DNA of 64,000 nt from the NCBI GenBank assembly GCA_963664395.2, contig OY761159.2:96001-160000 (forward strand), written 5' to 3'. The position numbers were made by a program, and so were the translations under genes. Positions 6,522 through 55,471 of the stretch are shown here, piece after piece. Position 1 is the first letter of the stretch, and every line of letters starts with the position of its first letter. The notes beneath the pieces were generated by a model. The model was not told the origin of the DNA. It ran no database searches and saw only the letters and a program-made list of their open reading frames with translations. This stretch comes from Candidatus Binatia bacterium (GTDB taxonomy: Bacteria > Desulfobacterota > Binatia > Bin18).

Positions 6522-8543
<2,022 letters not shown>

Positions 8544-8584
8544 TTACAAGCAGCATTGATGTACGATGGAAATGTTGAGACATC

Positions 8585-8683
8585 GTGCTCCCTTCGCTGG
8601 CATTACCCAGATCAGGTTCCAGGGGTCGATACACTGCACAACACAGTGCCTCCTCTCAGCCGAAAATCCAGCTCCCCCAACAC
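8585..8683 (-). promoter_or_regulatory. TPP riboswitch
   Basis: Minus strand GGGGAGC...GGCTGAGAG...GACCCCTGGAACCTGATCTGGGTAATGCCAGCGAAGGGA upstream of thiC. Confidence 0.95.
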
Positions 8684-8784
8684 CTTAGGATCAATGTCGG
8701 ATTATGCTACGCCGCCCGTCTCGGGCTGTCAACGCAGGCTTACATTCCGAAGATGCAGGTGCTACGCCTGCCCCTCTATCCCTA

Positions 8785-10109: not shown

Positions 10110-10150
10110 GTGGGGCGACTGGTACTGTCGGCCGCCGAATTCGCCTGCCC
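10110..10150 (+). pseudogene. 3'-end remnant of a third LuxR-type regulator
   Basis: Encodes RLVLSAAEFA versus RLVLSVAVLA* and RRVLSVATFV* at the ends of the two intact regulators; followed by the same palindrome. Confidence 0.65.
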
Positions 10151-10167
10151 CGCTGCGGTGCGATTTT

Positions 10168-10211
10168 CCTATAATTTTATAGGAGACGGGGGGCACGGAA
10201 TTGGGTACAGG
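10168..10211 (+). promoter_or_regulatory. Palindromic operator copy A plus putative -10
   Basis: CCTATAA-TT-TTATAGG (10168-10183), then AGACGGGG; TACAGG at 10206. Confidence 0.7.
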
Positions 10212-10431
10212 GAGGGGGTGATTTGTGCGAACACGAGGAGTGAAGCGCTGACAGGCGCATGCAGGCCAGCCGTCCGGCTTTTCATAGACACCATACGGAG
10301 ACGCTGTCGCAGGGATACTCCGTTCGAGAGTGTCCTTTCTTTTCCTTTCCATACTCCATGAACTGTCTCCAAGAAACGGATTTCCATCATGACTGCACCC
10401 CACTGGAAAAACCGGACAAGGACGCACCGGC

Positions 10432-11568
10432 ATGAGTGACCAAGATGCACTCGAACGTATCCTGGCGGCGTTACATGACGCCATGCTCGACGATAGCCAG
10501 TGGCCGGCCACCTCAGCCCTGATCGATGAAGCCTGCGGGATGCAGGGCAATGCCCTGCTGGTCCGCAACGGCCCACAGGACAATGCCCGGGTCCTTTTCG
10601 TCGGGCTCTATTACCGGGGGGAGCGCCGCGAGGACTGGGAGCGCGAGTACCTCGGGGTCTACCACCCCATCGACGAACGCGTGCCGCGGCTGATGCAACT
10701 GCCCGACAGCCGCCTAGTGCGGATCGCCGACCTGTACACCGAACAGGAGTTGCAGACCTCGCTCGCCTACAACGAGGGATTGTCCCGGGGGAGTGCCCGG
10801 CAGGGCGTGAATGTGCGGCTGGACGGGCCGGACGGCTCCCACATCTCCTGGGTCACCGCCGACCCCGTCTCCCCGAACGGCTGGGCGTCCTCGCAGCTCG
10901 CGCTGCTCAAAGCGCTGCTGCCCCATATCCGGCAATTTGTCCGCATCCGGCAGGCGCTGGCCAAAGCCGAGGCGCTGGGCGCGTCCCTGACCGCCCTGCT
11001 CGGCACCTCTCGGATCGGGGTCATCTGCTTGGACCGGCGCGGGCGGGTCGTGGAGGCGAATGACCGTGCCCGTGCCATCCTGCGGCAGAGCGACGGGCTG
11101 ATGGACCGGGGCGGCGTGCTGGCCGCCCGCGTGCCGGCTGACCATGCCTGCCTGGAGCGGCTGGTCGCCGACGCGCTGCCGACCTCCAGTGCGCCCGCCG
11201 TCAGTGGGTCAATGCGGCTCCACCGCGCGTCCGTGCAGCCACCGTTCGTGGTGCACGTCAAACCTGTGGGTATCCGGCAGATGGACTTCGGGGCGCGGCG
11301 CGTAGCTGCCCTGGTGCTGCTTGTCGAGCCGGGGCAAGTGGCCCGCATCGATCCCGCCCTGGTGGCCGCGACCCTGGGGCTGACGCCGGTGGAGAGCGAG
11401 ATAGCGGCCTGGCTGGCGGAAGGCCGGACGGTCCGCGAGATTGCGGGGGCGAGGGGGCATACGACAGGCTCCGTCTATTGGTACCTGAATCAGATTTACC
11501 GCAAGCAGGGCATTGCCCGGCAGGCGGACTTGGTGCGGCTGGTGCTGTCGGTCGCCGTGCTCGCCTGA
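10432..11568 (+). CDS. LuxR-type HTH regulator with N-terminal GAF/PAS-like sensor region (copy 1)
   Basis: C-terminal GLTPVESEIAAWLAEGRTVREIA...LNQIYRKQGIARQADLV; central PAS-like LDRRGRVVEANDRA. Confidence 0.85.
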   Translation: MSDQDALERILAALHDAMLDDSQWPATSALIDEACGMQGNALLVRNGPQDNARVLFVGLYYRGERREDWEREYLGVYHPIDERVPRLMQLPDSRLVRIADLYTEQELQTSLAYNEGLSRGSARQGVNVRLDGPDGSHISWVTADPVSPNGWASSQLALLKALLPHIRQFVRIRQALAKAEALGASLTALLGTSRIGVICLDRRGRVVEANDRARAILRQSDGLMDRGGVLAARVPADHACLERLVADALPTSSAPAVSGSMRLHRASVQPPFVVHVKPVGIRQMDFGARRVAALVLLVEPGQVARIDPALVAATLGLTPVESEIAAWLAEGRTVREIAGARGHTTGSVYWYLNQIYRKQGIARQADLVRLVLSVAVLA

Positions 11569-11588
11569 CCTCCGGCTGGTGCGATTTT

Positions 11589-11632
11589 TCTATAATTTTA
11601 TAGGAGACGGGGCTGCGCCAGTGCCTTATAGA
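11589..11632 (+). promoter_or_regulatory. Palindromic operator copy B plus putative -10, upstream of the LRR gene
   Basis: CTATAA-TT-TTATAG then GAGACGGGG; TATAGA at 11627. Confidence 0.75.
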
Positions 11633-11732
11633 ACCTTCTCTGGGCGTCGGTGACCGCAGATTCCACACCGACCGCCTTGCTACCGCCCGACAAGAGAGGA
11701 CGGAGAGGTGGCTGGAAGAGGAGGAAGGTCAC

Positions 11733-14700
11733 ATGTTCTTGACACACCTGTGGTGCATGGCAGCCGGACGACCCGCCCCTGTCCGTTCAGATTCTGTCGG
11801 TCCGGGTGCCCTGCGGCAGGCCGTTCGCCCAGGCGGACAGAATCTCGGCGCGGGTCCCGGCAGGTGGGCGCGCGCTCTTCTCTGCGCGAGTGTCCTGCTG
11901 CTCCTCGGCTGGCCCGTCCCCGGCAGCGCCCAGACGACCTGCACCTCGACTAGCACGGCCGTCAGCGGGTTCACCGGTACCTTGGATGCCTTGGTGACAG
12001 ACTGCACCACCTTGCTGGGGCTCAAGGACGAGCTGCGTGGCACGGCGACCCTGGACTGGGCAGAGACTCTCGCCATGTCCTCGTGGGACGGCATTACCGT
12101 CGCAGGAGCCCCACCGCGGGTGACCCGTCTGGTAGTCCCCAATAAGAGCCTCACCGGCGTCATCCCCGCAGCGTTGGGCGACCTCACGAACCTGGCAGAG
12201 TTAACGCTCAACGGGAATGAACTCACCGGCACCATCCCCGCGGAGTTGGGCAAGCTCACGGACCTGGCGACCTTAGGGCTCTACGAAAACCAACTCACCG
12301 GCACCATCCCCGACCGGTTGGGCGCCCTCACGAGCCTGACACAATTATACCTCCACGATAATGAACTCACCGGCGCCATCCCCGCGCAGTTGGGCGCCCT
12401 CATGAACCTGCAACACTTATGGCTCAAGGGGAATGCACTCACCGGCGCCATCCCCGCGGAGTTGGGCGCCCTCATGAACCTGGAACAATTAGACCTCACC
12501 GAAAACCAACTCAGCGGCACCATCCCCGCAGCGTTGGGCGGCCTCATGAACCTGCAACACTTACACCTCGGTTTCAACCAACTCAGCGGCACCATCCCCG
12601 CAGCGTTGGGCGGCCTCATGAACCTGCAATACTTATTGCTCCACGATAATCAACTCACCGGCACCATCCCCACGTGGTTGGGCGCCCTCACGAACCTGGA
12701 ACAATTATACCTCCGCGAGAATCAACTCAGTGGTTCCATCCCCGCAGCGTTGGGCGCCCTCATGAACCTGCAATACTTATGGCTCAACGATAATCAACTC
12801 ACCGGCACCATCCCCGCGCAGTTGGGCGACCTCACGAACCTGGAACAATTATACCTCCACAGGAATGACCTCAGCGGTGCCATCCCCGCGGAGTTGGGCG
12901 CCCTCACGCTCCTGAAAGTGTTATGGCTCAACGAGAATGACCTGACCGGCCCCATCCCTAATGAGTTACAAACTCTCGCCGCCATGGAAGACCTGGACTT
13001 TTCCTTCAATGACCTGAGCGGCCCCATCCCCACGTGGTGGGGCTCCCTTTCCAACCTGCAATACCTCTACCTGCGCTTCACCGGCCTCAGCGGCCCTATC
13101 CCCACCGGGTTGGGCACCCTCACGAACCTGGCAGAGTTACACCTCGCCGCAACGGACTGGACCGAGACGATTCCGCAGGCGTTACTGACTAAGCAGACGA
13201 ATGGCACCCTGAGTTTGTGGACCAATCGGCGGCCCACCCCCCCGGAGGCTGAAGCCCCGGAGGCCGTAGTGGGACATGCGTACCAGTACACGGTGCCCTT
13301 CAGTGACCGAGATCGCGACCCGCTCCTTTTCCGCGCCAGCCAAGCCGGCGCCGGCAGCGCCCTGCCGGGCTGGTTGGCCTTTGACGAGCCGACGGGCACC
13401 CTCAGTGGAACCCCGCCCCGAGTAGGAGAGCGGGTCGCGGTGCAAGTAACCGCCACCGATGAGGACATGTTGGCCGCTGGGGACCTCCCCTGCGACCCCG
13501 ACAGAGACGAGGCCGCTACTGAGATGAACCCTCCCCGGCTGTGCGCCACCGTCACCTTCGAGCTCACCGTTGTCGCGAATCAGCCGCCGGTCGCCCCGGA
13601 ATTGACAGCGATCCTTTTTGAGCCGGGGCCGCACGTGTATCCGGTGACCTTCGAGGACGAGGGGGAAGTGACCTTCCAGGTCGCGCCGGCCGCGGGGCAG
13701 GCGCTGCCTGAGTGGCTTGAGTGGAGACCGGAAAGCCCCGGCGGTTTTTTTCAGGAAACATTGTGGTTCTTTATAGACGACACGGCTGTCAACCCAGCGG
13801 GAGGCTCCTGTGTGGTGGTGACGGCCACCGACCAGGGCGGCCTCAGCGCGTCGGTCGTCTTCGCCGCTCTCCTTGCCGCCGACCAAGGCGAGAACCCCTG
13901 CTTGGGAGTAGTGCCACCACCGCCTGGTGGCGGTGACGGTGGTGACGGTGGTGACGGTGGTGGCGGTGGTGACCGGTGGTGGCGGTGGTGGCGGTGGTGG
14001 CGGTGGTGGCGGTGGTGGCGGTGGTGGCGGTGGTGGCGGTGGTGGCGGTGGTGGCGGCGGTGGCGGTGGTGGCGGTGGTGGCGGTGGTGGCGGTGGTGGC
14101 GGTGGTGGCGGTGGTGGTCTCAGCAGTGACGACCACGGTAACACGGCTGCCCAGGCGACCCCCGTCCCCCTGGACTCCACCCGCATGTCCTCCACGACCG
14201 GCCAGCTCAATCCGGCGACCGACGTAGATTACTTCACCGTGGCCGTGCCCTACGCCGGCGTCTTGGTCGTCGAGACGACCGGCTCGACCGCTACCGTAGG
14301 CACGATATGGCAAGACGGCGAGGAACTGGCGAGTGCGGAGAGTGGCGGGGCGGGGCAGAACTTCCGACTCAGCGTGCGGGTCCAGGCCGCGCCGGTGGTG
14401 ATTGCCGTGCAGGGCAATGGGCAGCAGACTGGGGCGTACACGCTCCAGACGACCCTCATCGTGGGGTATCTGGAGAATCCGGGGGCGGCGTCCTTTCAGA
14501 GCGGCATCGGCGTCCTCTCGGGCTGGGTGTGCGAGGCCGACGCCGTGGAGATTGCGTTGAACGGCGTGCGGCAGCGGGCCGCGTATGGGACGGAGCGGCT
14601 CGATACGGCAGACATCTGCGGCGACACGGACAACGGCTTTGGGCTGTTGTTCAACTGGAACCTGCTGGGCGAGGGGGAGCATGACGTGGTCGCGTTCGTG

Positions 14701-15318
14701 GATGGGGTGGAGTTGAGCCGGACGACGGTGACCGTCACCACGCTGGGCACGGAGTTTCTGCGGGATGTAGCGGGCGCATGTGCGGCCGAGGACTTCCCGA
14801 TGCTGGGCGAGACGGTGACGGTCGCGTGGCAACAGACACAGCAGAACTTTGTGCTTGCCCACGGCCCGGCCCCGACCGGGGAGAGTCGGGCCGGAGCGAT
14901 TGACGTGGGGTTTCTGGAGAATCCGGGGCCGAACTCGTTTCAGAGTGGCATCGGGGTGATTTCAGGCTGGGTGTGTACGGCCGACGAGGTCGAGGTCGCG
15001 ATTGGGGACACCGGGCGGCAGCTCGCTGCCTATGGGACGGAACGGGTAGACACGCTGGATGCGTGTGGCGATACGGACAACGGCTTTGGGTTGTTGTTCA
15101 ACTGGAACCTGTTGGGGGACGGCGAGCATGCGGTGGTCGCTTATGTGGACGGCGAAGAGTTAGGCCGGGCCACGGTGCGGGTGACGACGTTGGGCGTGGA
15201 GTTTCTACGGGGAGCCGAAGGGGAGTGTGTCGTTGAGGACTTCCCGGCTCTGGGGCGGACCGTTACGCTTGAATGGCAACAGAGTCTTCAGAACTTTGTG
15301 ATTACGGATGTGGAGTAG
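11733..15318 (+). CDS. Secreted LRR protein: long signal peptide, 14 plant-type LRRs, He_PIG/Ig-like repeats, poly-Gly linker, PPC-like domain, 2 conserved C-terminal domains; interrupted by a +1 frameshift at ~13974
   Basis: ORFs 11733..14129 and 13927..15318 join if one C is removed from GACCGGT at 13971-13977; LxGxIPxxLGxLxxLxxLxLxxN repeats; LPGWLAFDEPTGTLSGTP; DDHGN...DVDYF. Confidence 0.8.
12150..13157 (+). repeat. 14 x 72-bp LRR-coding tandem repeat
   Basis: Recurring CTCA(C/G)CGGC..CATCCCCGC...GTTGGGC..CCTCA.GAACCTG units. Confidence 0.9.
13926..14118 (+). repeat. GGTGGTGGC/GGTGGTGAC 9-bp microsatellite encoding a poly-Gly linker
   Basis: Directly visible; 48 consecutive Gly codons at 13975-14118. 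Confidence 0.95.
14831..15318 (+). repeat. 488-bp imperfect direct repeat, copy 1 (partner 17333..17820)
   Basis: Both copies start AACAGACACAGCAGAACTTTGTGC and end GTGGAGTAG; same length and colinear. Confidence 0.85.
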
Positions 15319-15322
15319 AAGA

Positions 15323-17173
15323 ATGGGAATTAAAATGTTGTTTACCATCTTGTTTGTTCTGGTCCTTTTCCTGGTTCCCCAGGCGGAAGCTCATGTCGGT
15401 AATCCTTGTTTGGCGTCTGAACATTTGGATGAATCCCATGAATTCTGTTTTATAACAGACGAAGAAGCGGTTGACGTGCCACCGATAACAGAAAAAGTAA
15501 AACCCGCCACCGACCACTTAGACAGTACACGACTTTATGATCAAGAAGGTGACGCGGACCATCGTCATAAAATTCGTGCTATTGGAGTTCCGGGCGAAAA
15601 CTATGACAAGACTCATTTAGAGGATGACGGTCTTGGTACTAGGATAGTTTCTATTCCGGTATTTGATAGGGACTTTAATTCTTCTACTGGGTCTCCAAGC
15701 CCCTGTTATGAAATCAATTCAGACAGACTCGGGACTTTCTATTCCTACACGCATCGAAGAAATCCTCATCCTTTTGCCGACGAGGGAATAACGTACCCGC
15801 CGCTTAATCCGCCACATAATGTGAGCGTCATAGCTGTAGGAGTAGAAATTAAGTGGGATGGTGGTGCAGGTCCAGGATTGGATTATGAGACCGCTTCTGT
15901 CGATGGTGATGGAAATCATTACTATGATTATACTATCACCGCGTGGGACGCAGTTGATGAGGGGCGATCCTGTGAGAACTCAGTAGACCCGGCATGGAAG
16001 TTATCGGAGACTTTTCGTTTATACGTCACTGACGTAGATGAAACGATAAATTATCCCCCGACATTTGATACTCAGATGGACCAAATGGCGGTGTTTGAGA
16101 ATGCCGATCCTGATGTAGAGATATGTTGTTCCATAGTTGATGTTTCTGACAGGGATACCGCGCCCGAGGACTTGGTATACTCGTTACGTGGTGACGACGC
16201 TGATTCTTTTAGAATCACTACCGGCGCTATGTATCCTTCTGGAAACGGTCAACCAAATGGATTTATCTTTGCGACACGAACGTTTGATTACGAGACGAAG
16301 AATAGGTATGAAGTGACGGCTCGTGTAGAAGACCCAGAAGGACTATTCCTTGAACGTAGTTTTACAATACATGTCGTAGACGTAGTGAACGAAGGGTGCG
16401 GTCCTCCTCATTTCCCTGGAAATGGAATTAGTCCATTTGATGTACGGGTTCATTTAAGTAATACAGATTCAAATGGAAACATACGCTCGTATGATGATGG
16501 TAATTGTACTGTGGAGCCCCCGCCAGTAGAAGAGGAAGTAGAAAATACTCCTCCTCCAACAACTGGTAGAACTTCTCCTCCTCTGGTGAGTAATCCTCCT
16601 TCTTCTAGTAATTCAGATGGAGGTGGTGGTGGTGGATCCGGGGGTAATTCAGGCGGTGGAGGCGGAGGGTCCAGTAGTAGTTCAGGAAATGGAAATTCTT
16701 CTTTAACAAATACGACCCCTAACTCTGACGAGGAAACTCAACTGGGACCGGAATCGCCCGTTTATTCTCTGGAGAATCCGGGACCGAATTCCTTTCAAAG
16801 TGGAGTGGGACTCATATCCGGTTGGGTATGTGACGCCGAGGTTGTCGAGATCGAGTTGAATGGTGCGCCGCAGGAGGCGGCGTATGGCACGCTTCGGTCC
16901 GACACGGAAGCTGTCTGTGGCGATATCGACAACGGCTTTGGTCTCTTATTCAACTGGAATCTGTTGGGGGATGGAGAGCATACTATTGTCGCGTTTTCTG
17001 ACGGAGAAGAGTTCGGACGGACTACCTTCACTGTCACTACCCTGGGTCAAGAATTTGTGAGTGACGTTCCCGAAAGGACCGTAACTATTGAAGACTGGCC
17101 AGGATCGGGTGAAACGGTCACGCTTGAATGGCAACAGAGTCTTCAGAACTTTGTGATTACGGATATGGAGTAG
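15323..17173 (+). CDS. Secreted cadherin-domain protein with Pro/Gly/Ser linker and the conserved C-terminal domain; low GC
   Basis: Signal peptide ending AEA; NYPPTF, FDYETKNRYEVTARVEDPEG, VVDVVNE cadherin motifs; ends LENPGPNSFQSG...WQQSLQNFVITDME. Confidence 0.85.
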   Translation: MGIKMLFTILFVLVLFLVPQAEAHVGNPCLASEHLDESHEFCFITDEEAVDVPPITEKVKPATDHLDSTRLYDQEGDADHRHKIRAIGVPGENYDKTHLEDDGLGTRIVSIPVFDRDFNSSTGSPSPCYEINSDRLGTFYSYTHRRNPHPFADEGITYPPLNPPHNVSVIAVGVEIKWDGGAGPGLDYETASVDGDGNHYYDYTITAWDAVDEGRSCENSVDPAWKLSETFRLYVTDVDETINYPPTFDTQMDQMAVFENADPDVEICCSIVDVSDRDTAPEDLVYSLRGDDADSFRITTGAMYPSGNGQPNGFIFATRTFDYETKNRYEVTARVEDPEGLFLERSFTIHVVDVVNEGCGPPHFPGNGISPFDVRVHLSNTDSNGNIRSYDDGNCTVEPPPVEEEVENTPPPTTGRTSPPLVSNPPSSSNSDGGGGGGSGGNSGGGGGGSSSSSGNGNSSLTNTTPNSDEETQLGPESPVYSLENPGPNSFQSGVGLISGWVCDAEVVEIELNGAPQEAAYGTLRSDTEAVCGDIDNGFGLLFNWNLLGDGEHTIVAFSDGEEFGRTTFTVTTLGQEFVSDVPERTVTIEDWPGSGETVTLEWQQSLQNFVITDME

Positions 17174-17177
17174 AAGA

Positions 17178-17332
17178 ATGGGAATTAAAATGTTCTTCAT
17201 TGTTTTCTTAATGATCGTATCTTTTTTGACGCCCTAAGCAGAAGCTCATGTCGGCAACCCCTGTTTGGAGGCGGATTACGCCGATGAAAGTCATACTTGT
17301 TACATAACCGAAGAGGAGAGTTTAGCCGGGGT
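17178..17332 (+). pseudogene. Truncated paralog of the cadherin protein N-terminus
   Basis: MGIKMFFIVFLMIVSFLTP*AEAHVGNPCLEADYADESHTCYITEEE versus MGIKMLFTILFVLVLFLVPQAEAHVGNPCLASEHLDESHEFCFITDEE; TAA at 17235; breaks off at 17333. Confidence 0.8.
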
Positions 17333-17820
17333 AACAGACACAGCAGAACTTTGTGCGTGCCCACGGCCCGGCCCCGACCGGGGAGAGTCGGGTCGGGGTG
17401 CCCGGCGTCGGCACGCTGGAGAATCCGGGGCCGAACTCGTTTCAGAGTGGCATTGGGGTGATCTCGGGCTGGGTGTGTGCGGCCGACGAGGTCAAGGTCG
17501 CGATTGGGGACACCGGGCGGCAGCTCGCTGCCTATGGGACGGAGCGGGTGGATACGCTGGATGCGCGTGGCGATACGGACAACGGCTTTGGGTTGTTGTT
17601 CAACTGGAACCTGTTGGGCGAGGGCGAGCATGAGGTAGTCGCCTTTGTGGACGGCGAAGAGTTAGGCCGGGCCACGGTGCAAGTGACGACGCTGGGCGTG
17701 GAGTTTCTACGGGGGGTTGAAGGGGAGTGTACGGTCAAGGACTTCCCGGCTCTGGGGCAGACGGTCACGTTGGAGTGGCAACAGAATAGTCAGAACTTTG
17801 TGATTACGGCCGTGGAGTAG
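17333..17820 (+). pseudogene. Orphan copy of the conserved C-terminal domain (repeat copy 2)
   Basis: ORF 17353..17820 nearly matches the last domain of the LRR protein; no signal peptide; the conserved Cys of CGDTDNGF is replaced by Arg. Confidence 0.7.
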
Positions 17821-17876
17821 GGGACCGACCCGCCCCCTTGATACCTATATCATTCCCGAAAGGGAGGAGCACGTTT

Positions 17877-18137
17877 ATGGCCCGTGGATTATCTGTACCG
17901 GCAAGAGATCGTCACCTGGCAGACCGTCTTGTGCAAGCGCTCCTGCCCCTCATCGAGGAACGCTTGGCCCACAAATTTGCGGCCTTTGAGCAGAGAATCG
18001 ATGAGCAGGTGCAAGCAGGTGAGAAGCGCAGGGGTCCTCGGTTCGAGGTCTTTTCCGATCTGTACTACCCCCATAGTCAAAGCGGTACACTTTGCTCGGG
18101 CCTTTGGTACACTTTCGCCCCTCACTGGTACAAATAG
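17877..18137 (+). CDS. Small hypothetical protein (possibly a remnant)
   Basis: GGAGGAG RBS before ATG; helical-looking N-terminal half; 3' part runs into an IS-end-like repeat. Confidence 0.35.
   Translation: MARGLSVPARDRHLADRLVQALLPLIEERLAHKFAAFEQRIDEQVQAGEKRRGPRFEVFSDLYYPHSQSGTLCSGLWYTFAPHWYK
18084..18137 (-). mobile_element. Possible orphan IS21-like terminal repeat
   Basis: GGTACACTTT at 18084 and 18106 and GGTACAAAT at 18127 (22/21-bp period); no transposase nearby. Confidence 0.35.
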
Positions 18138-18601
18138 AAAGAGGAATGTCGATGAGTAAGCCTGACCGCCTATCGATAATCAGGAGAACGACCTGTTTAG
18201 TAGAGAGAGGCCGACTCAGTGGCAATGGACTACTGGGTGGTCGCGTCCGACGCTACAATCTCCGTTCTTCTCGGTACAGGACTCTACCCGGTAAGCAACT
18301 CAGTAGACGACGGCCGCTTGCCTGGCTCAAATACGCCGCCCACTGATCCACGAGTGTACGCCAGCGCTCAAATAAGTCTGAGCGCGCATAGGCCGCTTCT
18401 ACCTTGTTTGTTTAATATAGAGGGGAACATCTCGGACCTGCTGAGACCTGCTATCCCAACAAGAGGGATAGACTATCCAGGAACTTCTCTTGTGAAGGGC
18501 TGAAGGCATATGGGGGCGCTTCGTCCGAGAATATCCCTTCTTTTCCTGTCCATACTCCATGACTGCACCCCACTGGAAAAACCGGACAAGGACGCACCGG
18601 C

Positions 18602-19738
18602 ATGAGTGACCAAGATGCACTCGAACGTATCCTGGCGGCGTTACATGACGCCATGCTCGACGATAGCCAGTGGCCGGCCACCTCAGCCCTGATCGATGAA
18701 GCCTGCGGGATGCAGGGCAATGCCCTGCTGGTCCGCAACGGCCCACAGGACAATGCCCGGGTCCTTTTCGTCGGGCTCTATTACCGGGGGGAGCGCCGCG
18801 AGGACTGGGAGCGCGAGTACCTTGAGGTCTACCACTCCCTGGACGAAAGCGTGCCGCGTTTCCGGCAACTGTCCGACAGCCGCGTGGTGCACGTCACCAA
18901 CCTGTACACCGCCGAGGAGTTAAGGACCTCGCCCGCCTATAACGAAGGGTTCGCTCGGGCCAGCATGCAGGATGGCGTGAAGGTGCGTCTGGACGGGCCG
19001 GACGGTTCCCATATCGCCTGGGCGACCGCCGACCCCGTCTCCCCGAACGGTTGGGAGTCCTCGCATCTCACGCTGCTCAAAGCGCTGCTGCCTCACATCC
19101 GGCAATTTGTCCGGGTCCGGCAGACGCTGGTCAAAGCCGAGGCGTTGGGCGCGTCCGTGACCGCCCTGCTCGACACCCCTCGGGTCGGCGTCATCCATCT
19201 GGACCGGGACGGGCGGGTCGTGGAGGCGAATGACCGGGCCCGCGTCCTCCTGCGGCACGGCGATGGGCTGTCGGACCGGGACGGGGTACTGTCCACCCGC
19301 GTGCCGGCCGACCGGGCCCGCCTGGAGCGGCTGGTGGCCGCCGCGCTGCCGACCTCCCGCGCCCCCGCCGTCAGTGGGTCGATGCTGCTCCACCGGACGT
19401 CCACGCTGCCGCCGTTCGTGGTGCACGTCAAACCCGTGCGTGTCCGGCAGCTGGACTTTGGGGCGCGGTACGTCGAGGCGCTAGTGCTGATTACCGAGTC
19501 AGGGTACGTGCCCCGCATCGATCCCGCTCTGGTGGCCAAGACCCTGGGGCTGACGCCAGTGGAGAGCCAGATGGCGGTCTGGTTGGCGGAAGGCCAGACC
19601 GTGCGCGAGATTGCCGGGGCGACGGGGCGCACGGCCGGCTCCGTCTATTGGCACCTGAATCATATCTACCGCAAGCAGGGCCTCTCCCGGCAGGCGGACT
19701 TGGTACGGCGGGTGCTGTCGGTGGCTACGTTCGTCTGA
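18602..19738 (+). CDS. LuxR-type HTH regulator with GAF/PAS-like sensor region (copy 2)
   Basis: Paralog of 10432..11568, also 378 aa; 10388-10652 is identical to 18558-18822. Confidence 0.85.
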   Translation: MSDQDALERILAALHDAMLDDSQWPATSALIDEACGMQGNALLVRNGPQDNARVLFVGLYYRGERREDWEREYLEVYHSLDESVPRFRQLSDSRVVHVTNLYTAEELRTSPAYNEGFARASMQDGVKVRLDGPDGSHIAWATADPVSPNGWESSHLTLLKALLPHIRQFVRVRQTLVKAEALGASVTALLDTPRVGVIHLDRDGRVVEANDRARVLLRHGDGLSDRDGVLSTRVPADRARLERLVAAALPTSRAPAVSGSMLLHRTSTLPPFVVHVKPVRVRQLDFGARYVEALVLITESGYVPRIDPALVAKTLGLTPVESQMAVWLAEGQTVREIAGATGRTAGSVYWHLNHIYRKQGLSRQADLVRRVLSVATFV

Positions 19739-19758
19739 CCCCCGGGCGGGGGAATTTT

Positions 19759-19802
19759 TCTATAATTTTATAGGCGACAGGGGCCGCGGAATTGCGTATA
19801 GG
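19759..19802 (+). promoter_or_regulatory. Palindromic operator copy C plus putative -10
   Basis: CTATAA-TT-TTATAG then GCGACAGGGG; TATAGG at 19797. Confidence 0.75.
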
Positions 19803-19940
19803 AACCTTTCCTCAGACGCCGGCGGGCGGAGAGGTGGTAGGAAGAGGAGAAGCCTCACATGTTCTTAACCAGCCTGTGGTGCACGGCCGCATTACAAGGT
19901 GGGACGGCCTTGGCCGTCGCCGGCGCGGAAGGCGGAGGGC

Positions 19941-20555
19941 GTGACGACCCGACTCTCGAACGCTGAACGCTCTCACCGGACCCGGCGCGCCCTGCTTGAC
20001 GTGGGTCGGGCGTTGTTTGCCGACGTGGGCTATGCCCGCACCACGACGGAAGAGCTTGTCCGGCGGGCGGGCGTGACCCGCGGGGCGTTGTACTATCACT
20101 TTCCCGACAAAACCGCGCTCTTCGAAGCCGTGTTTGAGGAAGTCCACCAGGAATGCCTCCAAGCGATGAGCACAGGCATGGAGACGGCTGAGGGCGACCC
20201 GTGGGAACGGTTTATGGCGAGTCTGCGGGTGTTGATTGCACAGCTTGGACGCCCGGACGTCCAGCGTATTGTCGTTGATGGTCCGGCGATCCGGGGTTGG
20301 TCCAGCACACGACAGGGGCCGCTGGGTCCGCAGAGCCTGCGTGCCGTTTGTGAGCAGTTGGTCGCCGAGGGGGTGATTACACCCCTGCCACTCGATCCCC
20401 TGTGCCGCCTGGTGTGGACGGCCTGCTCCGAGGCGGCGCTCCACATTGCCCAGCCCGAGACGAGCGGTGGGGACCAGCAGGAAATGATCGCCACGCTGAT
20501 GTGTCTGCTCGGCAGACTGCGGTGCAAGCAGGAGGCTGGGGACAGGCAGGAGTGA
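19941..20555 (+). CDS. TetR-family transcriptional regulator
   Basis: TRRALLDVGRALFADVGYARTTTEELVRRAGVTRGALYYHFPDK; GTG start after GGAGG. Confidence 0.92.
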   Translation: MTTRLSNAERSHRTRRALLDVGRALFADVGYARTTTEELVRRAGVTRGALYYHFPDKTALFEAVFEEVHQECLQAMSTGMETAEGDPWERFMASLRVLIAQLGRPDVQRIVVDGPAIRGWSSTRQGPLGPQSLRAVCEQLVAEGVITPLPLDPLCRLVWTACSEAALHIAQPETSGGDQQEMIATLMCLLGRLRCKQEAGDRQE

Positions 20556-49118: not shown

Positions 49119-49142
49119 GGGCGACGCATGCGTCGCCCCTAC
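49115..49142. repeat. GTAG-type REP palindrome between convergent genes
   Basis: Perfect palindrome GTAGGGGCGACGCATGCGTCGCCCCTAC; contains both stop codons. Confidence 0.8.
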
Positions 49143-52100
49143 CTCACATCCGTAATGACAAAATTCTGACTATTCTGCTGCCACTCCAACAGCACGTTCT
49201 GCCCCAGGCGGGGGAAGTCCTCTACTACACACTCCCCCTCGGCCCCCCGTAGAAACTCTTCCTCTGCCCCTTCCCCCACGGTCGTCACCCGCACCGTCGC
49301 CCGGCCTAACTCCACCCCATCCACGAAGGCCACGACTTCATGCTCCCCATCGCCCAACAGATTCCAGTTGAACAACAGCCCAAAGCCGTTGTCCGTATCG
49401 CCACACACGCTGGCCGTGTCCAGCCGCTCCGTCCCATACGCCGCCACCTGCGGGGCTCCGTTCAACTCCAGTTCCACCCGGTCGGCGTCACACACCCAGC
49501 CCGACAGGACGCCCACCCCACTTTGGAACGAGAGATCGCCGGGGTTCTCCAGATAGCCCTGCACAAAGGTGACGACCACATCGTAGCCCCCGGTTGCCCC
49601 CCCCTGCCCTTGTACGGCCACGACGACTGGGCCGGCCTGCACGAGGGCACCAAGCCGGTCGTCTTGCGGATCGCCACGCGTGGAGCCGGACGCCAATATC
49701 CTGTCGTTCTGCCAGATGGTCCCGCGGGTCTGTACTCCGCCGAAGGTGTCCACAAAGACCAGTCCTCGGCCGGGGGCGGTCACGGTCAAATAATCTACGT
49801 CGGCGGCCGGACAGATGGCTCCGGCAGTTGTAGCAGACAAGGCAATATCAGTGGCTTGCGCCGCGCTGTTACCGTGTAAATCCTCCGTGCAGTCAGGACC
49901 ACGACCGCCGCCACCACCACCGCCACCACCACCGCCACCAGGACCAGGACCAGGACCGGGCGGTCCTGGCGGTCGGGGCGGCGAAGACGAGACGGTGATG
50001 AAGACGGGGACTTCGTCGGATTCCCCGGACGGGTCAGAGGCGATCACGGTGACCTGGTAGGGCTTCTGGGGTTCATCAGCCTTCGTGCTGATCGTGCGCT
50101 GCCCGAGTGACCGCGTCACTTGGTCCGCACAGGGCGATAGTCCCCCTGGACCTACCGTGATCTGTCCGCTGATCCAGTCGATATCGAAACAGGCCGCGTC
50201 CGCGTCCTTTTCGTCCAGCGTGTAGGTGAGCGGGTAATCCTCTGGGTCCTCGGCCCTCACCGTCCCGACGCGGCTCCCCGCCCCCGCGTTGGCTCCGACG
50301 GTGAGGGTGGCCGAGGGCGCGGGAAATGCCGGGGGAGCATTGTTGACCGGCGCCGTCCGCACCGCATGGGGCGCAACGATCTGCGCGCTCTTGGTCTCGT
50401 TGAGGTCGGCTCCATCGGTATACGTCACCGTGACACGCAGGTACCAGCCCTCATCATCAGTCTCCGGCGTATAGCTGGCGGCGGGCGTCCCCCTGACGGC
50501 CTCCCACGTCTGCTTATCCTGTGACCGCTCCCAGACCCAGTCGGTGGAGACGAGGCCGTCGGGATCGGTCAGGATGGCAGTCAACGCGGTATCGACCTGC
50601 GGCTGCACCGACGACAGGGTCAGATTGCCTGCTTCATCCTCGTTGGTCACGGTAACAGTCACGGGCAGCCCAGCCGTCAGCTCTCCATCGAAGGCCTCTA
50701 CGGTCACCTCGTAGTCGTTGTCGCGGTTGAAGTCGGTGGCCTCTTCGCGGTTGGGCGGGATGAGAAAGGTGAGGACGCCGTTGTTGATCGAGAAGGTCGT
50801 CCTGTCAGCTCCCGACAGCACCCACCGAATCGGGTCGTGCTCCGGGTCGGTGGCACGGTAGGTGGCAACTGGTCCCGTGTCGTTCTCCTCGTAGTCGTTA
50901 ATGGCAATCGGCCCAGTCAGCGTGGGCGACTCGTTGACGTTGGTGACACTGACGGTGACGGTCTGTCTCGCGGTATGGCTCCCGGCGGAGGCTTCCACGG
51001 TCACGGTGTAGCTGCTAGCCGCCTCGTAGTCGGGCGGGGTGAGGAAGCGCAGGATGCCGCCGTTGAGATTGATGTCTTCGAAGGCGTTGCGGTCAGCTCC
51101 CGCCAGCGCCCAAGTGAGCGGTTCCTGCTCCGGGTCGGTCGCGCTGAAGGTAGCAACTATCCCGGTGTCGTTCTCCTCGTACGGGACGCTGGTCCGGCCG
51201 GTCAGCGTGAGCGGTTCATCTACGTCGGAGATGTCGATGGTCACAACGATGGAGGCGGAGGCTCCAGAGGGGTCGGTGGCCGTCACGGTGACGGCGTAGC
51301 TATCCTTTGTCTCGCGGTCCAACTCCGTCCCCTCGGCCACCGTCAGTTGGCCGGTATCGGGGTTGAGGTCAAACGAACCGGTGTCAGCGCCCGAGAGCGT
51401 GTAGGTCAGCAGGTCTTTGTCCACCTCGTCCGCATCCGTTGCCGTCACCGGGGCGCCGACGGGACTCTCTGCTGCCGCGTTCTCCTGGACGCTCCGGGTC
51501 GTGGTAGCAGCCGGGAATTGTGGTGGGTTCCTGCCCTGCTCATCCCTTACCGGATTGGCGGCCATACGCTGGAGCTCTTTGCTGACGGGATCATCATATC
51601 CATCGGTGTAGGTCACCCTGACCCGCAGGGAGTCGCCCACGTCATCGCTCGCCGGTGTGTAGCTGTTTGAGGTCTCACCATCAATGACCGTCCACGTGCT
51701 CCTGTCCGAGGAGCGCTCCCAGACCCAGGTGGAGTCGGAGACGATGTCGGGATCGCTCAGGGTGGCCGTCAGCGCGGTGGCCTCCTGTGGCTGCTCCGAC
51801 GACAGGGTCAGGCTGCCTGCTTCGTCCAGGTTGTTGACGGTGACGGTGAGGGGCTGCGGCGTGGTGAGGTCTCCATCAGAGGCGACCACGGTCACTTCAT
51901 AGTTGTTGTTGCCGTCGGCGTCGGCGCGCGCCTCGAAGTTGGGAGCAGGGGCGAAGTTCAGAACGCCGTTGGTGATGGTGAAGTCGTCATCGTCGTTTCC
52001 GGTCACCGACCAAATGACGGTCGCGCCCTCCGGGTCCGTGGCGGTGTAGCGGGCGACCTGGGCCGTGTTGTTCTCGTCATACAGTGGAACGCTGGTCGGT

Positions 52101-55100
52101 CCCGTCAGCGTGGGTGGTTCATCCACATCGGTGACACGGAAAGTGATGGCGTGCCGTCTGATGTGAATCCCAGCGCGGGCGGTCACGGTCATCTCATAGA
52201 CGTTGTTGCGGTTGGCATCGGCGGGTCTCTCGTAGTCGGGCGGGGTGCGGAAACGCAGGACGCCGCGGGTAATAGAAATGTTAAAGACGCCACGGTCGTC
52301 TCCGAATCCTGACCATATTGGGGACACGCCCTCCGGGTCGGTGATGATGTATTTCGCAACCGGCCCGGTGCCGTTCTCGGCATACGACGAGACGCGGAAC
52401 AGCTCTGTAAGCGTGTGTACTTCATCCACGTTGGTGACAGTGACGGTGACGGGCAGTGTAGCGGGGCTGGAGGTCCCATCCGAGGCGACCACGGTCACTT
52501 CATAGACGTTGTTGTCACCGGCGTCGGTGGGCAACTCGTAGTTAGGAGCGGTACGGAAGCTCAGGATACCGTTGCTGATGGAGAAGTCATCGTGGTCGGT
52601 TCCAGCTAGCGGCAACCAAGTGAGTGCCTTCTTCTCCGGGTCGGTGGCGTCGTATTCAGCGACCGGGAGAATGTTGTTCTCGGCATACGGGACACTGTCT
52701 TGGCCGCTCAGCGTGGGCGATTCATCCACATCGGTGATGGTGATGGTCACGGTGATGGAATCGGCGTCGGCGGTGGGATCGTCGGTCGTCACGGGGTCGG
52801 TGGCCGTCACGATGACGACGTAGCTGTCCTTGGTTCCCTCGTAGTCCAGCGCCGTCCCCGAGGCTACCGATAGTTGGCCGGTGCTGTCATCGATATCAAA
52901 CGAGCGGACGTCGGTGCCTGAAAGCGTGTAAGTCAAAGTCTCATTGTTGGGATCGGTCGCCACGACCGGGACACCGACGTTGGTGCCGGTGGTCGCACTC
53001 TCATCGACGCTCCGGGTGGCGGCGGCGCCGTCCGCAAAGTAGGGCGTGTCGCTTGAGGGCGTCTCGGTGGCCGTGTCTGACCACACGCCGTCGCCCTGGG
53101 CGTTGACCGCCTGCACCTGCACGTCGTAGGCCACGTCATCGTCCAGGCCGCTGATAGTGTATTGCAGAGCGCCGGAGGTCGCGGGGTCAACGACGGTCCA
53201 GTTGGCGGCGGCCGTCTCGTCATCCGTGGTCTTGATAGAGCGCACATCGTAGGCGGTGACGGCGGAGGCGCCGCTGTTGTCCGGCGCCTGCCAGGCAACG
53301 GTGAGTGCGCCGGGCCCCGGCGTCACTGCGTCGATGTCCGGTGCGTCGGGGGTGAACCGGTAGCCGTAGACGGTCAGGCTCCACGACTTCAACGTGCCGG
53401 AGGAACCGGATACGCGGTCGCTGATGCGCAGTGTCCACTCCCCGGCGGGATTCTCGCCCAGGTGCTTGGCCGAGCCGAACCGGAAGCTCCTCCGTAAGCT
53501 GTATTCCTCCTCTATGATTATGGCGGCGGTTCTATGATCGTAGGGAACGGACAGGACAGAAATCTTCCCCGACGGGGAGGTCAACTCTACCTGTAAGTTA
53601 CGGAAGTATCTGTGGTCGAAGTCAGTATTGATTTCGACGAACTCGATGAACTCGACCGTCGAGTCCATAGTGATGCTACTCGTGACCCAGGAGCGCGAAT
53701 CGGGAATACTCAGAGAGCCACCGGTGAAGGGTGCGGCGTCTGTGGTAGCCTTGGTCAGTTCCGGAACAAGGGTCCAGCCGTCGGCCAAATCCACGGCGGC
53801 CTTGGCGTCCACCACCCCGAAGCCGTACTCGTGGTTGAAGTGGTAGCGCTCCGTGTCAGAGTCGTATTGCAGCGCCCCGTCCTCCCAGCCGGTGTTGTCC
53901 GGGTCGTTCTTGCGGGCGGACGCGGCCAGGATGAGCTTCACGTCCCGCCAGCTCAGGGCGGTATTGGCGCTGCGTACCAGCGCGGCCACGCCGGAGACGA
54001 TGGGAGCGGCCGCACTGGTGCCGCCAAAGTCGTTCCTGTAGAGGTCGTCGTTGTCGGTGGTGGTGATCCCGTGGCGACCGCGGGTGCGGTCATTCGACGG
54101 CGCGCAGACCCACAGGTTGGCACCCTCTTCCGAATACGCGGAGCGCTCGCCCTGGTCGTTCACCGCGCAGACCGCAGTCACGCCGTAGTGGTTGGCGTAC
54201 CCGCCTAAGTTGGAGTTGTCTCTCCGCAAGGCCCCGTTTCCGGCGGTCCAGACATAGAAGATGCCCTTGTCGTCAAAACCTTCTGTGATGCCTTTTTCTA
54301 TCGCCATCTCCCAGATTCTGGGAGCGGCGTCCAGTCCGGGCCCGTCGCGCGGTCCCCAACTGTTGTTGGAGACGGCTGTGGTATCCAGATTGCGTTTCGC
54401 GGCGTCCGCTTCGTTTTTATCGGTGAAATCCAGGAGGAGGTTGTAGCCGTAGATCGTCGCCTGGGGCGCCACTCCCCGCACGCCCAGGCTGTTATCCCGC
54501 GCCGCGATGATGCCCGCCACCGCCGTACCGTGGTCTTCGGCGGGATCGTAGATGTCGTTCCCGCCGGTGTAATCGTGGTTGCGCGCTGTATTCACGTTGG
54601 CGCTCAGATCCTCGTGCGTATAATCCATGCCGTCGTCGACCACGGCCACATTGATACCAGCCCCCAGGTTGTTGTCGTCCCAGACCTCTTCGACGTTGAT
54701 GTCCTCGCCTGACGTCCCGCCTGTGAGCTGCCCCGTGTTGTTCAGATGCCACTGACAACCGTACAGCAGGTCGCTGATTGTGTCATCGATATCCGCACAG
54801 TCGGCTAGAAATCTGTTGTAGCTCGCGTCTTCAAACGCGCGAATGGTGTACGGCCCGGTGTCGTCACTGTCAATCACCGTGCCGCTACTGTTCTGGAGTT
54901 CGCCCACGGTATCGAGAGCGCCGGTCGTCCAGATGAGCAGGCCGGTCTCTTCGGTCAGGGTGAACGTGAAGTAATCCACGTCGGTCCCTGGGTCGATCAC
55001 CCCTTCCATAGCGGTGTCCAGCGTCAGGCTCGTCGCCTCCGAAGCGCTGTCCCCATGATCCGGGGCGCCCGTTTCCGTGGTGGACCAGGTGCCGTCGCCG

Positions 55101-55471
55101 GTGGCGTTGACCGCCCGTACCTGCACGTCATATTCCGTGCTGTCGGTCAGACCGGAGAGGGTGGTGGACAGGGCGCCGTCGCCGGATTCCCAGACCTTTT
55201 CTTCCACGATCCAGTTGGCGTCGTCCGTCTCGTCGTCGGCAGTCTTGATAAAGCGCACATCGTAGGCTTCGATGGCCGAGCCGCCGGTGTCGGCGGGTGC
55301 GGTCCAGGTCACGACCAGGGTGAGACCGAGCGAACTGCTGCTACCCGCCGTAACCGTGGTGATGCTGGGCGCGCCGGGTGCAGTCTGCGCCCAGGCGTCA
55401 CCAGCGACCAGCAAGCAAAACAGCACCCAGCCTGCCGTCCGTAGTAGAGTTTTTCCCACGAGTAAGCGCAT
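49139..55471 (-). CDS. Giant secreted kexin/furin-like S8 protease: FN3, PPC-like, S8, P-domain, FN3, multiple cadherin/Ig repeats, Pro/Gly linker, PPC-like domain, conserved C-terminal domain
   Basis: VAVVDDG, HGTAVAG, GGTSAAAP triad; WTAGNG; GENPAGEWTL P-domain; LDYE/PDYE/DVDE cadherin motifs; ends WQQNSQNFVITDVR. Confidence 0.92.
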   Translation of the reverse strand: MRLLVGKTLLRTAGWVLFCLLVAGDAWAQTAPGAPSITTVTAGSSSSLGLTLVVTWTAPADTGGSAIEAYDVRFIKTADDETDDANWIVEEKVWESGDGALSTTLSGLTDSTEYDVQVRAVNATGDGTWSTTETGAPDHGDSASEATSLTLDTAMEGVIDPGTDVDYFTFTLTEETGLLIWTTGALDTVGELQNSSGTVIDSDDTGPYTIRAFEDASYNRFLADCADIDDTISDLLYGCQWHLNNTGQLTGGTSGEDINVEEVWDDNNLGAGINVAVVDDGMDYTHEDLSANVNTARNHDYTGGNDIYDPAEDHGTAVAGIIAARDNSLGVRGVAPQATIYGYNLLLDFTDKNEADAAKRNLDTTAVSNNSWGPRDGPGLDAAPRIWEMAIEKGITEGFDDKGIFYVWTAGNGALRRDNSNLGGYANHYGVTAVCAVNDQGERSAYSEEGANLWVCAPSNDRTRGRHGITTTDNDDLYRNDFGGTSAAAPIVSGVAALVRSANTALSWRDVKLILAASARKNDPDNTGWEDGALQYDSDTERYHFNHEYGFGVVDAKAAVDLADGWTLVPELTKATTDAAPFTGGSLSIPDSRSWVTSSITMDSTVEFIEFVEINTDFDHRYFRNLQVELTSPSGKISVLSVPYDHRTAAIIIEEEYSLRRSFRFGSAKHLGENPAGEWTLRISDRVSGSSGTLKSWSLTVYGYRFTPDAPDIDAVTPGPGALTVAWQAPDNSGASAVTAYDVRSIKTTDDETAAANWTVVDPATSGALQYTISGLDDDVAYDVQVQAVNAQGDGVWSDTATETPSSDTPYFADGAAATRSVDESATTGTNVGVPVVATDPNNETLTYTLSGTDVRSFDIDDSTGQLSVASGTALDYEGTKDSYVVIVTATDPVTTDDPTADADSITVTITITDVDESPTLSGQDSVPYAENNILPVAEYDATDPEKKALTWLPLAGTDHDDFSISNGILSFRTAPNYELPTDAGDNNVYEVTVVASDGTSSPATLPVTVTVTNVDEVHTLTELFRVSSYAENGTGPVAKYIITDPEGVSPIWSGFGDDRGVFNISITRGVLRFRTPPDYERPADANRNNVYEMTVTARAGIHIRRHAITFRVTDVDEPPTLTGPTSVPLYDENNTAQVARYTATDPEGATVIWSVTGNDDDDFTITNGVLNFAPAPNFEARADADGNNNYEVTVVASDGDLTTPQPLTVTVNNLDEAGSLTLSSEQPQEATALTATLSDPDIVSDSTWVWERSSDRSTWTVIDGETSNSYTPASDDVGDSLRVRVTYTDGYDDPVSKELQRMAANPVRDEQGRNPPQFPAATTTRSVQENAAAESPVGAPVTATDADEVDKDLLTYTLSGADTGSFDLNPDTGQLTVAEGTELDRETKDSYAVTVTATDPSGASASIVVTIDISDVDEPLTLTGRTSVPYEENDTGIVATFSATDPEQEPLTWALAGADRNAFEDINLNGGILRFLTPPDYEAASSYTVTVEASAGSHTARQTVTVSVTNVNESPTLTGPIAINDYEENDTGPVATYRATDPEHDPIRWVLSGADRTTFSINNGVLTFLIPPNREEATDFNRDNDYEVTVEAFDGELTAGLPVTVTVTNEDEAGNLTLSSVQPQVDTALTAILTDPDGLVSTDWVWERSQDKQTWEAVRGTPAASYTPETDDEGWYLRVTVTYTDGADLNETKSAQIVAPHAVRTAPVNNAPPAFPAPSATLTVGANAGAGSRVGTVRAEDPEDYPLTYTLDEKDADAACFDIDWISGQITVGPGGLSPCADQVTRSLGQRTISTKADEPQKPYQVTVIASDPSGESDEVPVFITVSSSPPRPPGPPGPGPGPGGGGGGGGGGGGRGPDCTEDLHGNSAAQATDIALSATTAGAICPAADVDYLTVTAPGRGLVFVDTFGGVQTRGTIWQNDRILASGSTRGDPQDDRLGALVQAGPVVVAVQGQGGATGGYDVVVTFVQGYLENPGDLSFQSGVGVLSGWVCDADRVELELNGAPQVAAYGTERLDTASVCGDTDNGFGLLFNWNLLGDGEHEVVAFVDGVELGRATVRVTTVGEGAEEEFLRGAEGECVVEDFPRLGQNVLLEWQQNSQNFVITDVR

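Follow-up and report, generated by a model that had tools for sequence, protein, structure and literature searches.

A family of three-domain LuxR-type regulators and their putative paralog-specific operators in a Candidatus Binatia bacterium

The window analysed here is a stretch of 64,000 nucleotides (nt) from the genome of a Candidatus Binatia bacterium (assembly GCA_963664395.2, contig OY761159.2, positions 96,001 to 160,000). Between its positions 10,110 and 20,555 it carries two intact genes encoding LuxR-type regulators, the relic of a regulator gene, and three copies of the palindrome CTATAATTTTATAG, all read on the + strand and each followed by a putative promoter (Table 1). Palindrome 1 precedes the gene for regulator 1 itself, palindrome 2 a gene for a protein with leucine-rich repeats (LRR) and a He_PIG domain, and palindrome 3 a TetR-family gene. 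This arrangement is a real regulatory module with an ordinary mechanism, and its regulators come from a large three-domain branch of LuxR-type proteins for which no description was found. Judged from sequence, the palindrome is very probably the operator of the adjacent regulator, and the fuller reading, in which the regulator bound there also activates transcription from about position -42.5, is given a probability of roughly 0.7.

Table 1. Features of the regulator-palindrome cassettes in window coordinates (aa, amino acids; ORF, open reading frame).
Feature	Position	Strand	Remarks
Relic of a LuxR-type regulator gene (last ~13 codons)	10110..10147	+	~40 nt; aligns with the 3' ends of both intact genes; stop-codon position reads TGC
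Operator 1, putative autoregulatory site of regulator 1	10168..10183	+	7-2-7 palindrome CCTATAA-TT-TTATAGG; core 10169-10182, centre 10175.5
Putative promoter 1	10183..10211	+	-35-like GAGACG (10183-10188), 17-nt spacer, -10-like TACAGG (10206-10211); predicted start near 10218
Upstream ORF of 16 codons	10389..10439	+	MTAPHWKNRTRTHRHE; stop overlaps the start of regulator 1 (ATGAGTGA)
Regulator 1	10432..11568	+	378 aa; recognition helix GSVYWYLNQ
Putative operator 2 (core)	11590..11603	+	21 nt past the regulator 1 stop; centre 11596.5
Putative promoter 2	11604..11632	+	GAGACG, 17 nt, TATAGA (11627-11632); predicted start near 11639
Shared stretch: leader, ribosome-binding region and ~10 initial codons	11698..11764	+	MFLTHLWC...; 81% identical to 19824-19890
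LRR + He_PIG protein (putative cargo of operator 2)	11733..14129	+	798-aa ORF; domains by Pfam
Upstream ORF of 16 codons before regulator 2	18559..18609	+	
Regulator 2	18602..19738	+	378 aa; 80% identical to regulator 1; recognition helix GSVYWHLNH
Terminator-like GC hairpin and T-run	19739..19758	+	hairpin 19739-19752; directly 5' of operator 3
Putative operator 3 (core)	19760..19773	+	centre 19766.5
Putative promoter 3	19774..19802	+	GCGACA, 17 nt, TATAGG (19797-19802); predicted start near 19809
Leader ORF of 35 codons	19859..19966	+	MFLTSLWC...; homologous to leaders of TetR loci in other genomes
TetR-family regulator (TetR_N + TetR_C_41)	19941..20555	+	GTG start at 19941 by homology

When the window was searched with the pattern CTATAANNTTATAG, up to one mismatch being allowed, 3 matches were found against 0.01 expected by chance, and 0 of 100 shuffles contained three or more. 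Genome-wide (5,036,955 bases), exact CTATAATTTTATAG occurs at 3 sites, all of them in the window, and the reversed control pattern at 0. The original prediction had given these three centres, had placed the palindromes about 20 bp past the 3' ends of regulator genes, and had put TA hexamers at one fixed distance behind them. All of this holds: the two intact genes end 21 nt before a palindrome, the relic aligns at the remaining site, and each hexamer lies 30.5 nt from its palindrome centre. The three copies belong to one duplicated cassette (repeat families D8 and D9), and the weight of the argument must therefore come from other paralogs and from other genomes.

The extended motif is asymmetric and is always oriented toward the following gene, also in copies facing divergent genes. 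More than 30 oriented copies of the cassette were found in this genome. Relics like that at 10110-10147 precede operator copies elsewhere in the genome, at least four copies outside the window keeping such a relic of the regulator 3' end, and these copies support the earlier proposal that the cassette is portable. Exact CTATCANNTGATAG sites number 9 in the genome, clustered at most ~25 kb from the two regulators of that type, and exact CCTCCCATTTTAGG sites number 10 and are dispersed; one-mismatch half-site matches add more sites, and all of these show the same oriented architecture.

Seven intact paralogs of the regulator and one broken paralog were found in this genome. Each has its own palindrome after the stop codon, and often also 130-300 nt upstream of the start. 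Operators of the types CTATCA-TT-TGATAG, CCTCCCA-TT-TTAGG and CCCCCAT.ATT.GGGGG accompany paralogs in this genome and relatives, and the further types CCTCCCA-TT-TGGGAGG and CCCGTAA-AA/TT-TTACGGG were found in relatives. The placement on both sides of the gene was assessed in 101 regulators with 450 nt on each side, some of them being the same gene fetched twice. Matching 7-2-7 palindromes (at least 6/7 pairs and at least 12/16 identity) flanked 23/101 regulators, compared with 12/303 in a control that paired the upstream flank of one locus with the downstream flank of another. A test for 16-mers shared between upstream and downstream flanks (at least 14/16) discriminated weakly, with 25/75 versus 19/150 in its control; the palindrome-based test is preferred to it, the control pairs of the 16-mer test including related loci.

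Among the paralogs, the recognition helix changes together with the operator type. Residue 349, which lies in this helix, goes with the base at position 2 of the right arm: Arg accompanies G at 20/21 sites, Tyr accompanies T at 9/10 and His accompanies T at 14/16 (47 sites in total), and Tyr or His is combined with TT at 23/26. The exceptions, GC-only palindromes, are probably noise. The window type (Tyr, TTATAG) differs from the sister clade (Arg, TGATAG) exactly in this residue/base pair, and the rule recurs in loci from records titled Binatia, Vicinamibacterales and Alphaproteobacteria.

Two further observations concern these paralogs and their relatives. Autoregulatory promoters of the TGATAG type (L007, upstream of G000:C1:3274784-3275911; L015, L037 and L040) contain a second inverted repeat, e.g. 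CGCATATGCG, located at or just past the -10-like hexamer, where a second factor, perhaps the TetR partner, might bind. In addition, G000:C3:17533-18654 and G000:C1:2009388-2010509 (L008 and L009) are nearly identical in gene and flanks, one of them lying on a 22.7-kb contig, which points either to a locus that was duplicated recently or to a copy that the assembly failed to collapse.

Promoter geometry was assessed on 304 palindromes in the flanks of 87 unique regulators (deduplicated from the 101), TA being counted at each offset. TA was found exactly 22 nt after the 16-nt palindrome in 48/304 cases in the direction of the gene, compared with 9 in the reverse direction. Counts at other forward offsets range from 1 to 28, the next highest belonging to the second TA of TATA at +24, with 19 at +28. 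The hexamers of the 48 sites have the composition T48 A48 T27 A26 n T21, and 43/48 have G two bases past the palindrome, forming a GnGAC-like stand-in for the -35 that lies 17 nt before the hexamer. The +22 geometry occurs in records titled Binatia, Vicinamibacterales and Alphaproteobacteria, with spacers that are unrelated between phyla. A scan for consensus sigma-70 promoters at the window cassettes returned 0 promoter-like sites, which fits activator-dependent promoters. LuxR activates from a lux box centred at -42.5, and if the hexamer is the -10, the dyad centre lies at about the same position, a geometry that fits LuxR-type class-II activators. The earlier placement of the palindrome at -42.5 is thus backed by the fixed distance to the TA hexamer and by the 48/304 count, and is conditional on the hexamer being a -10.

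The sequence anatomy, the paralog-specific operators, the covariation of helix and half-site, and a TA-hexamer distance that is fixed across phyla are the observations behind the proposed mechanism. Each palindrome would serve as a 7-2-7 operator to which the neighbouring LuxR-type regulator binds as a dimer. It would abut a weak -35-like GnGACn, with a -10-like TAnnnN 17 nt further on and the operator centre at about -42.5. Most likely, the regulator with its ligand acts as a class-II activator, like LuxR, TraR and LasR, on promoters that are poor without it. Regulator 1 would switch on itself through operator 1 and the LRR/He_PIG surface-protein operon through operator 2, and regulator 2 would switch on its TetR-family partner through operator 3; since operator and helix type are common to both regulators, they are expected to cross-talk. 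In this scheme, that the regulator binds, that it does so as a dimer, that it activates and does not repress, where transcription starts, and that there is a ligand and of what kind are all inferred.

Several points weigh against this mechanism. A strict form of the geometry rule, which misses degenerate dyads, finds a site in only 36/86 loci (21 upstream only, 10 on both sides and 5 downstream only), and a few of the 48, consisting of GC-only palindromes or an N run, are probably noise. A generic genome scan (7-2-7, G at +2, TA at +22) gave 33 sites versus 15-41 at other offsets and hence no excess. The architecture thus shows up only close to regulators or when the half-sites are known, and the generic scan was not used for sizing the regulon. 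As their last base, the three hexamers of the window have G, A and G, where a -10 usually has T. No operator was found within 450 nt upstream of regulator 2. The three window copies, as parts of one duplicated cassette, are not independent events, and paralogs and orthologs being kin, the counts overstate independence, so that the 47 sites of the helix comparison are not 47 independent events. Finally, TATAAT, a perfect -10, is contained in CTATAAT in all three copies.

This last point leads to a different reading, in which the palindrome overlaps the true -10 and the regulator is a repressor that occludes RNA polymerase, as EsaR-type LuxR proteins do. The variants found in the sister paralogs, TATCAT and TACCAT, keep A2 and T6, in agreement with it, and a repressor is possible for the type-A palindrome alone. 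However, no -35-like hexamer is present 16-18 nt upstream, in line with the 0 sites of the sigma-70 scan, and the other operator types (CCTCCCATTTGGGAGG, CCCGTAAAATTACGGG) have no -10-like hexamer and yet keep TA at +22 and G at +2. Repression by occlusion is therefore considered unlikely.

Much less probable still is a reading in which the repeats have no regulatory role and are either a recombination site or neutral relics that segmental duplication left behind. Such relics would explain that all three copies lie in one duplicated cassette and that relics of the regulator 3' end accompany many copies. They would not explain that the dyad symmetry is kept while the half-sites change with the regulator helix, or that the TA distance is kept across phyla despite unrelated spacers. 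As regards recombination, 13 ORFs between 6.5 and 24 kb were tested with Pfam, and none matched an integrase or transposase.

The genes that follow the palindromes were not entirely those anticipated. According to the original prediction, each regulator activates the gene just behind it, and the cargo consists of secreted eukaryote-like proteins. Such cargo does not follow every site in the window, since palindrome 1 lies in front of the gene for regulator 1 and palindrome 3 in front of a TetR-family gene. The idea applies to only one of the three window sites, that of the LRR/He_PIG protein, which has a signal-peptide-like stretch near residues 45-66; it is borne out by the regulon of the family across the genome. 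Indeed, out of 18 ORFs behind other sites in this genome, 11 have Pfam matches, which include fn3, SWM_repeat, cadherin, Calx-beta, LapA, GLUG, PPC, filamin, LRR, PKD, GH97 and arylsulfotransferase.

For the family as a whole, the longest ORF starting at most 700 nt past each of the 87 unique regulators was taken, and 85 regulators had one. The commonest conserved partner was a gene of the TetR_N + TetR_C_41 type (15/85, all in records titled Binatia, Binatota or 'Thermodesulfobacteriota'). Another paralog of the regulator followed in 2/85, and proteins with repeat, adhesin or eukaryote-like domains (ankyrin/TPR, LRR, cadherin, fn3, FG-GAP, autotransporter, Calx-beta, GLUG/reprolysin or MAM/BACON) in 9/85. 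In 44/85 the ORF had no Pfam match at E <=1e-05, and part of these ORFs may be spurious; the remaining ones were varied. The TetR gene of the window belongs to the TetR family by its scores for TetR_N (68.6 bits, cut-off 24) and TetR_C_41 (61.2 bits, cut-off 27); its mechanically called ORF begins at 19899, upstream of the homology-based start. Between operator 3 and this gene lies a leader with homologs at the TetR loci of other genomes, and the LRR gene begins with a copy of it. What had been taken for remnant cargo after palindrome 3 is thus the ancestral TetR-locus leader, copied by the LRR gene, and the unit of regulator, operator and TetR gene is the conserved core from which the LRR fusion is derived.

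Since TetR proteins bind palindromes, this association also raises another reading, in which the TetR-family partner, in place of the LuxR-type regulator, binds the palindrome and represses its own gene. The TetR gene does follow the regulator in those 15/85 cases, operator 3 included, but operators 1 and 2 have no TetR neighbour, and neither do the alphaproteobacterial and Vicinamibacterales loci. Moreover, the TetR recognition helix (G-V-T/S-R-G-A/T-L-Y-Y/H-H-F) is nearly constant across palindrome types, whereas the LuxR-type helix co-varies with them, which argues that TetR is not the specific binder and makes this reading very improbable.

That the palindrome acts in RNA, as a hairpin by which the regulator transcript is terminated or attenuated, is hardly credible: it does lie 21 nt past the stop codon, with a T-run before it and a GC hairpin with a T-run at 19739-19752, but the palindrome itself gives an A/U stem followed by GGAGACGGGG without a T-run, its folding energies are like those of shuffles (z -0.20, +0.34 and -1.79), and copies also occur upstream of regulators and at places remote from all regulator genes. 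The GC hairpin and T-run in front of operator 3 may end the regulator transcript. At the gathering threshold, Rfam detected only a tRNA and a thiamine pyrophosphate (TPP) riboswitch in the whole window, and nothing at the cassettes.

The 5' leaders of the regulator genes have features of their own. A terminator-like hairpin with a T/C-rich tail is present at 10311-10346, with a copy near 18519-18562; it is conserved among regulator 1, regulator 2 and two other paralogs and is a possible attenuator. The peptide of the 16-codon upstream ORF was found in four paralogs (the two of the window, G000:C1:2816358-2817488 and G000:C1:3274784-3275911), three copies being identical and the fourth one residue off, and the DNA of the copies shows silent differences. 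The TGA of this ORF overlaps the ATG of the regulator (ATGAGTGA), suggesting translational coupling or a leader peptide. A short upstream ORF of this type occurs in 7/87 regulators, all in the subclade of the window.

The regulator is composed of a LuxR-receptor-like domain (residues 1-178), a PAS domain (~186-300) and a GerE/LuxR-type helix-turn-helix (HTH; 313-376). In the window regulator, Pfam detected the GerE/LuxR-type HTH and a weak PAS domain, and over 27 aligned relatives it detected GerE in 27/27, PAS_8 in 26/27 and PAS_4 in 11/27. The best E values among the 27 were 6.1e-10 for GerE (PF00196) and 6.3e-05 for PAS_4 (PF08448), the PAS being preceded by the domain of 178 residues; in GerE, regulator 1 scores 23.2 bits, just below the cut-off of 23.5, and regulator 2 scores 24.9. 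Sequence matches in the PDB were to the DNA-binding domains of NarL, DosR, VraR and LiaR, and NCBIfam contained no family for the regulator, giving sub-threshold HTH matches only. The N-terminal 180 residues gave one meaningless sequence match in the PDB (E 0.35). Autoind_bind (PF03472) was found in 0/27 members at E <=10 and had no match in the whole genome, the control matching in E. coli. LuxI-type synthases (PF00765) had no match in the genome, which is 95.93% complete, nor in any of 14 control genomes.

In the AlphaFold model (predicted local distance difference test, pLDDT, 81), two alpha/beta domains precede the HTH. Residues 7-177 align with the ligand-binding domain of LasR with Z 15.1 and a root-mean-square deviation (rmsd) of 2.7 over 158/167 residues. 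Z values of 12-14.6 were obtained with CepR2, CviR, QscR, TraR and SdiA, versus 10.3-11.6 with generic GAF domains. The N-terminal domain is thus predicted to have a fold closest to LuxR-type autoinducer-binding domains. The sensor had been described beforehand as GAF/PAS-like, which is right for the middle domain, a PAS by its Pfam matches, and not for the N-terminal domain, whose modelled fold is nearer to the LuxR type than to GAF. Residues 313-376 align with the C-terminal domain of DosR (Z 11.4, rmsd 1.1) and also with VraR-type DNA-binding domains.

Compared with known systems, the regulator resembles the quorum-sensing receptors LuxR, TraR, LasR, RhlR and CviR in its C-terminal GerE/LuxR-type HTH and in its predicted N-terminal fold. 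With quorum-sensing LuxR activators it also has in common a dyad abutting a weak -35, a fixed distance to the -10-like hexamer, and an operator before the regulator's own gene. In contrast to these two-domain proteins of ~240 aa, a PAS domain is inserted here between ligand domain and HTH, giving 378 aa; the ligand domain differs in sequence, with no Autoind_bind match; and the operator is a 16-bp 7-2-7 dyad, not a lux box, which is 18-20 bp long. The form of the dyad is that of the operators of NarL/NarP, inverted heptamers 2 bp apart that are bound by a dimer of a GerE-type HTH, and of NarL/FixJ-type dimers in general, but no receiver domain is present here and the input would be of the ligand type and not phosphorylation. 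VqmA (PAS and LuxR-type HTH, the receptor of 3,5-dimethylpyrazin-2-ol, DPO) and EL222 (LOV and LuxR-type HTH) are alike in their one-component PAS-to-HTH design; both, however, have a single sensor domain and match weakly (VqmA, TM 0.23-0.36; EL222, E 0.0017 in the HTH alone).

The closest biological parallel is provided by Photorhabdus PAS4-LuxR solos, which also combine PAS with a LuxR-type HTH and which the passages on them present as greatly expanded and clustered paralogs of a host-associated bacterium, with no synthase and with unknown ligands, host signals being proposed (PMC4235431). Unlike these solos, the regulators described here have an extra N-terminal LuxR-receptor-like domain, carry PAS_4 in only 11/27 members and occur in several phyla. 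Their operators are identifiable, whereas the passages on promoters in that study describe operators for canonical LuxR only and not for the PAS4 solos (PMC4235431). In the literature searched specifically for this regulator family and its operators, no description of either was found, and the broader literature on Binatota and LuxR solos provided background only.

Homologs of the regulator are widespread. At least 3368 sequence clusters match it at E <1e-10, none of them named among the 120 listed. Clear homologs were found in 14/24 genomes of the genus of the window, with up to 14 matches per genome; the other families of its class contain only matches of 27-33% identity or fragments. Among public records, of which the best 80 of 189 were kept, relatives at 48-73% identity bear titles of Candidatus Binatia, Vicinamibacterales/Acidobacteriota, Tectimicrobiota/Entotheonella, Alpha- and Gammaproteobacteria, Spirochaetia, Bryobacterales and Nitrospira sp. 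bin75. In a quick tree of 67 sequences, from which loci L015-L042 of unnamed relatives and one sequence with a stop codon were left out, there were 12 changes of phylum label versus a minimum of 6, and a 17-member Acidobacteriota clade was nested among Binatia sequences. The pattern suggests that the regulators passed between phyla and then multiplied within lineages; bin errors in fragmentary metagenome-assembled genomes are another possible source of the mixing. Sponge-associated Binatota are described in passages of one study (PMC9999580), and passages of another describe the 'bin75' Nitrospirales genus as predominantly sponge-associated (PMC11812461).

A LuxR-type dyad at -42.5 is a mechanism already well known, and the control of many eukaryote-like and adhesin-type proteins in uncultured animal-associated bacteria is largely unknown. 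The present analysis yields a concrete circuit composed of a regulator family, its operators and a specificity rule of one residue and one base, and it is plausible that the family is linked to the control of eukaryote-like surface proteins. Candidate targets in this genome are proteins with LRR, cadherin, fn3, Calx-beta, LapA, GLUG, PPC, GH97 and arylsulfotransferase domains. Tentatively, the units might be insulated and horizontally exchanged switch cassettes, each composed of a regulator, a private operator, an activator-dependent promoter and a leader, by which unrelated bacteria, of lineages linked to sponges in the literature, convert small molecules of the host or community into the expression of eukaryote-like surface or secreted proteins. 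Equally speculative is the accompanying idea that new circuits without cross-talk could arise by duplication, a Tyr/His-to-Arg change at residue 349 and a T-to-G change in the half-site. The paralogous regulator-operator pairs could serve synthetic biology as orthogonal parts.

Additional observations were made on the region behind the LRR gene and elsewhere in the window. A 9-nt repeat array at 13901-14153 consists of ~21 GGTGGTGGC-like units with one 10-nt step. The frame of the LRR protein turns Trp/Arg-rich within it, and a Gly-rich reading goes on in the overlapping ORF 13927-15318, which may mean that the frame truly changes, that the assembly slipped or that the tract is prone to slippage. 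From 14469 to 17805, long internal direct repeats with 300-nt units that are 61-91% identical occur within and between the ORFs 13927-15318, 15308-17173 and 17353-17820. These look like repeat-protein genes and probably form one operon with the LRR gene; Pfam gave only a weak cadherin match for them. The TPP riboswitch (Rfam RF00059, 61.6 bits) lies at 8573-8688 on the - strand, directly upstream of thiC (6522-8540, - strand), which is an ordinary arrangement. An ORF of 2110 aa at 49139-55471, also on the - strand, occupies a G+C-rich stretch that is strongly AT-skewed.

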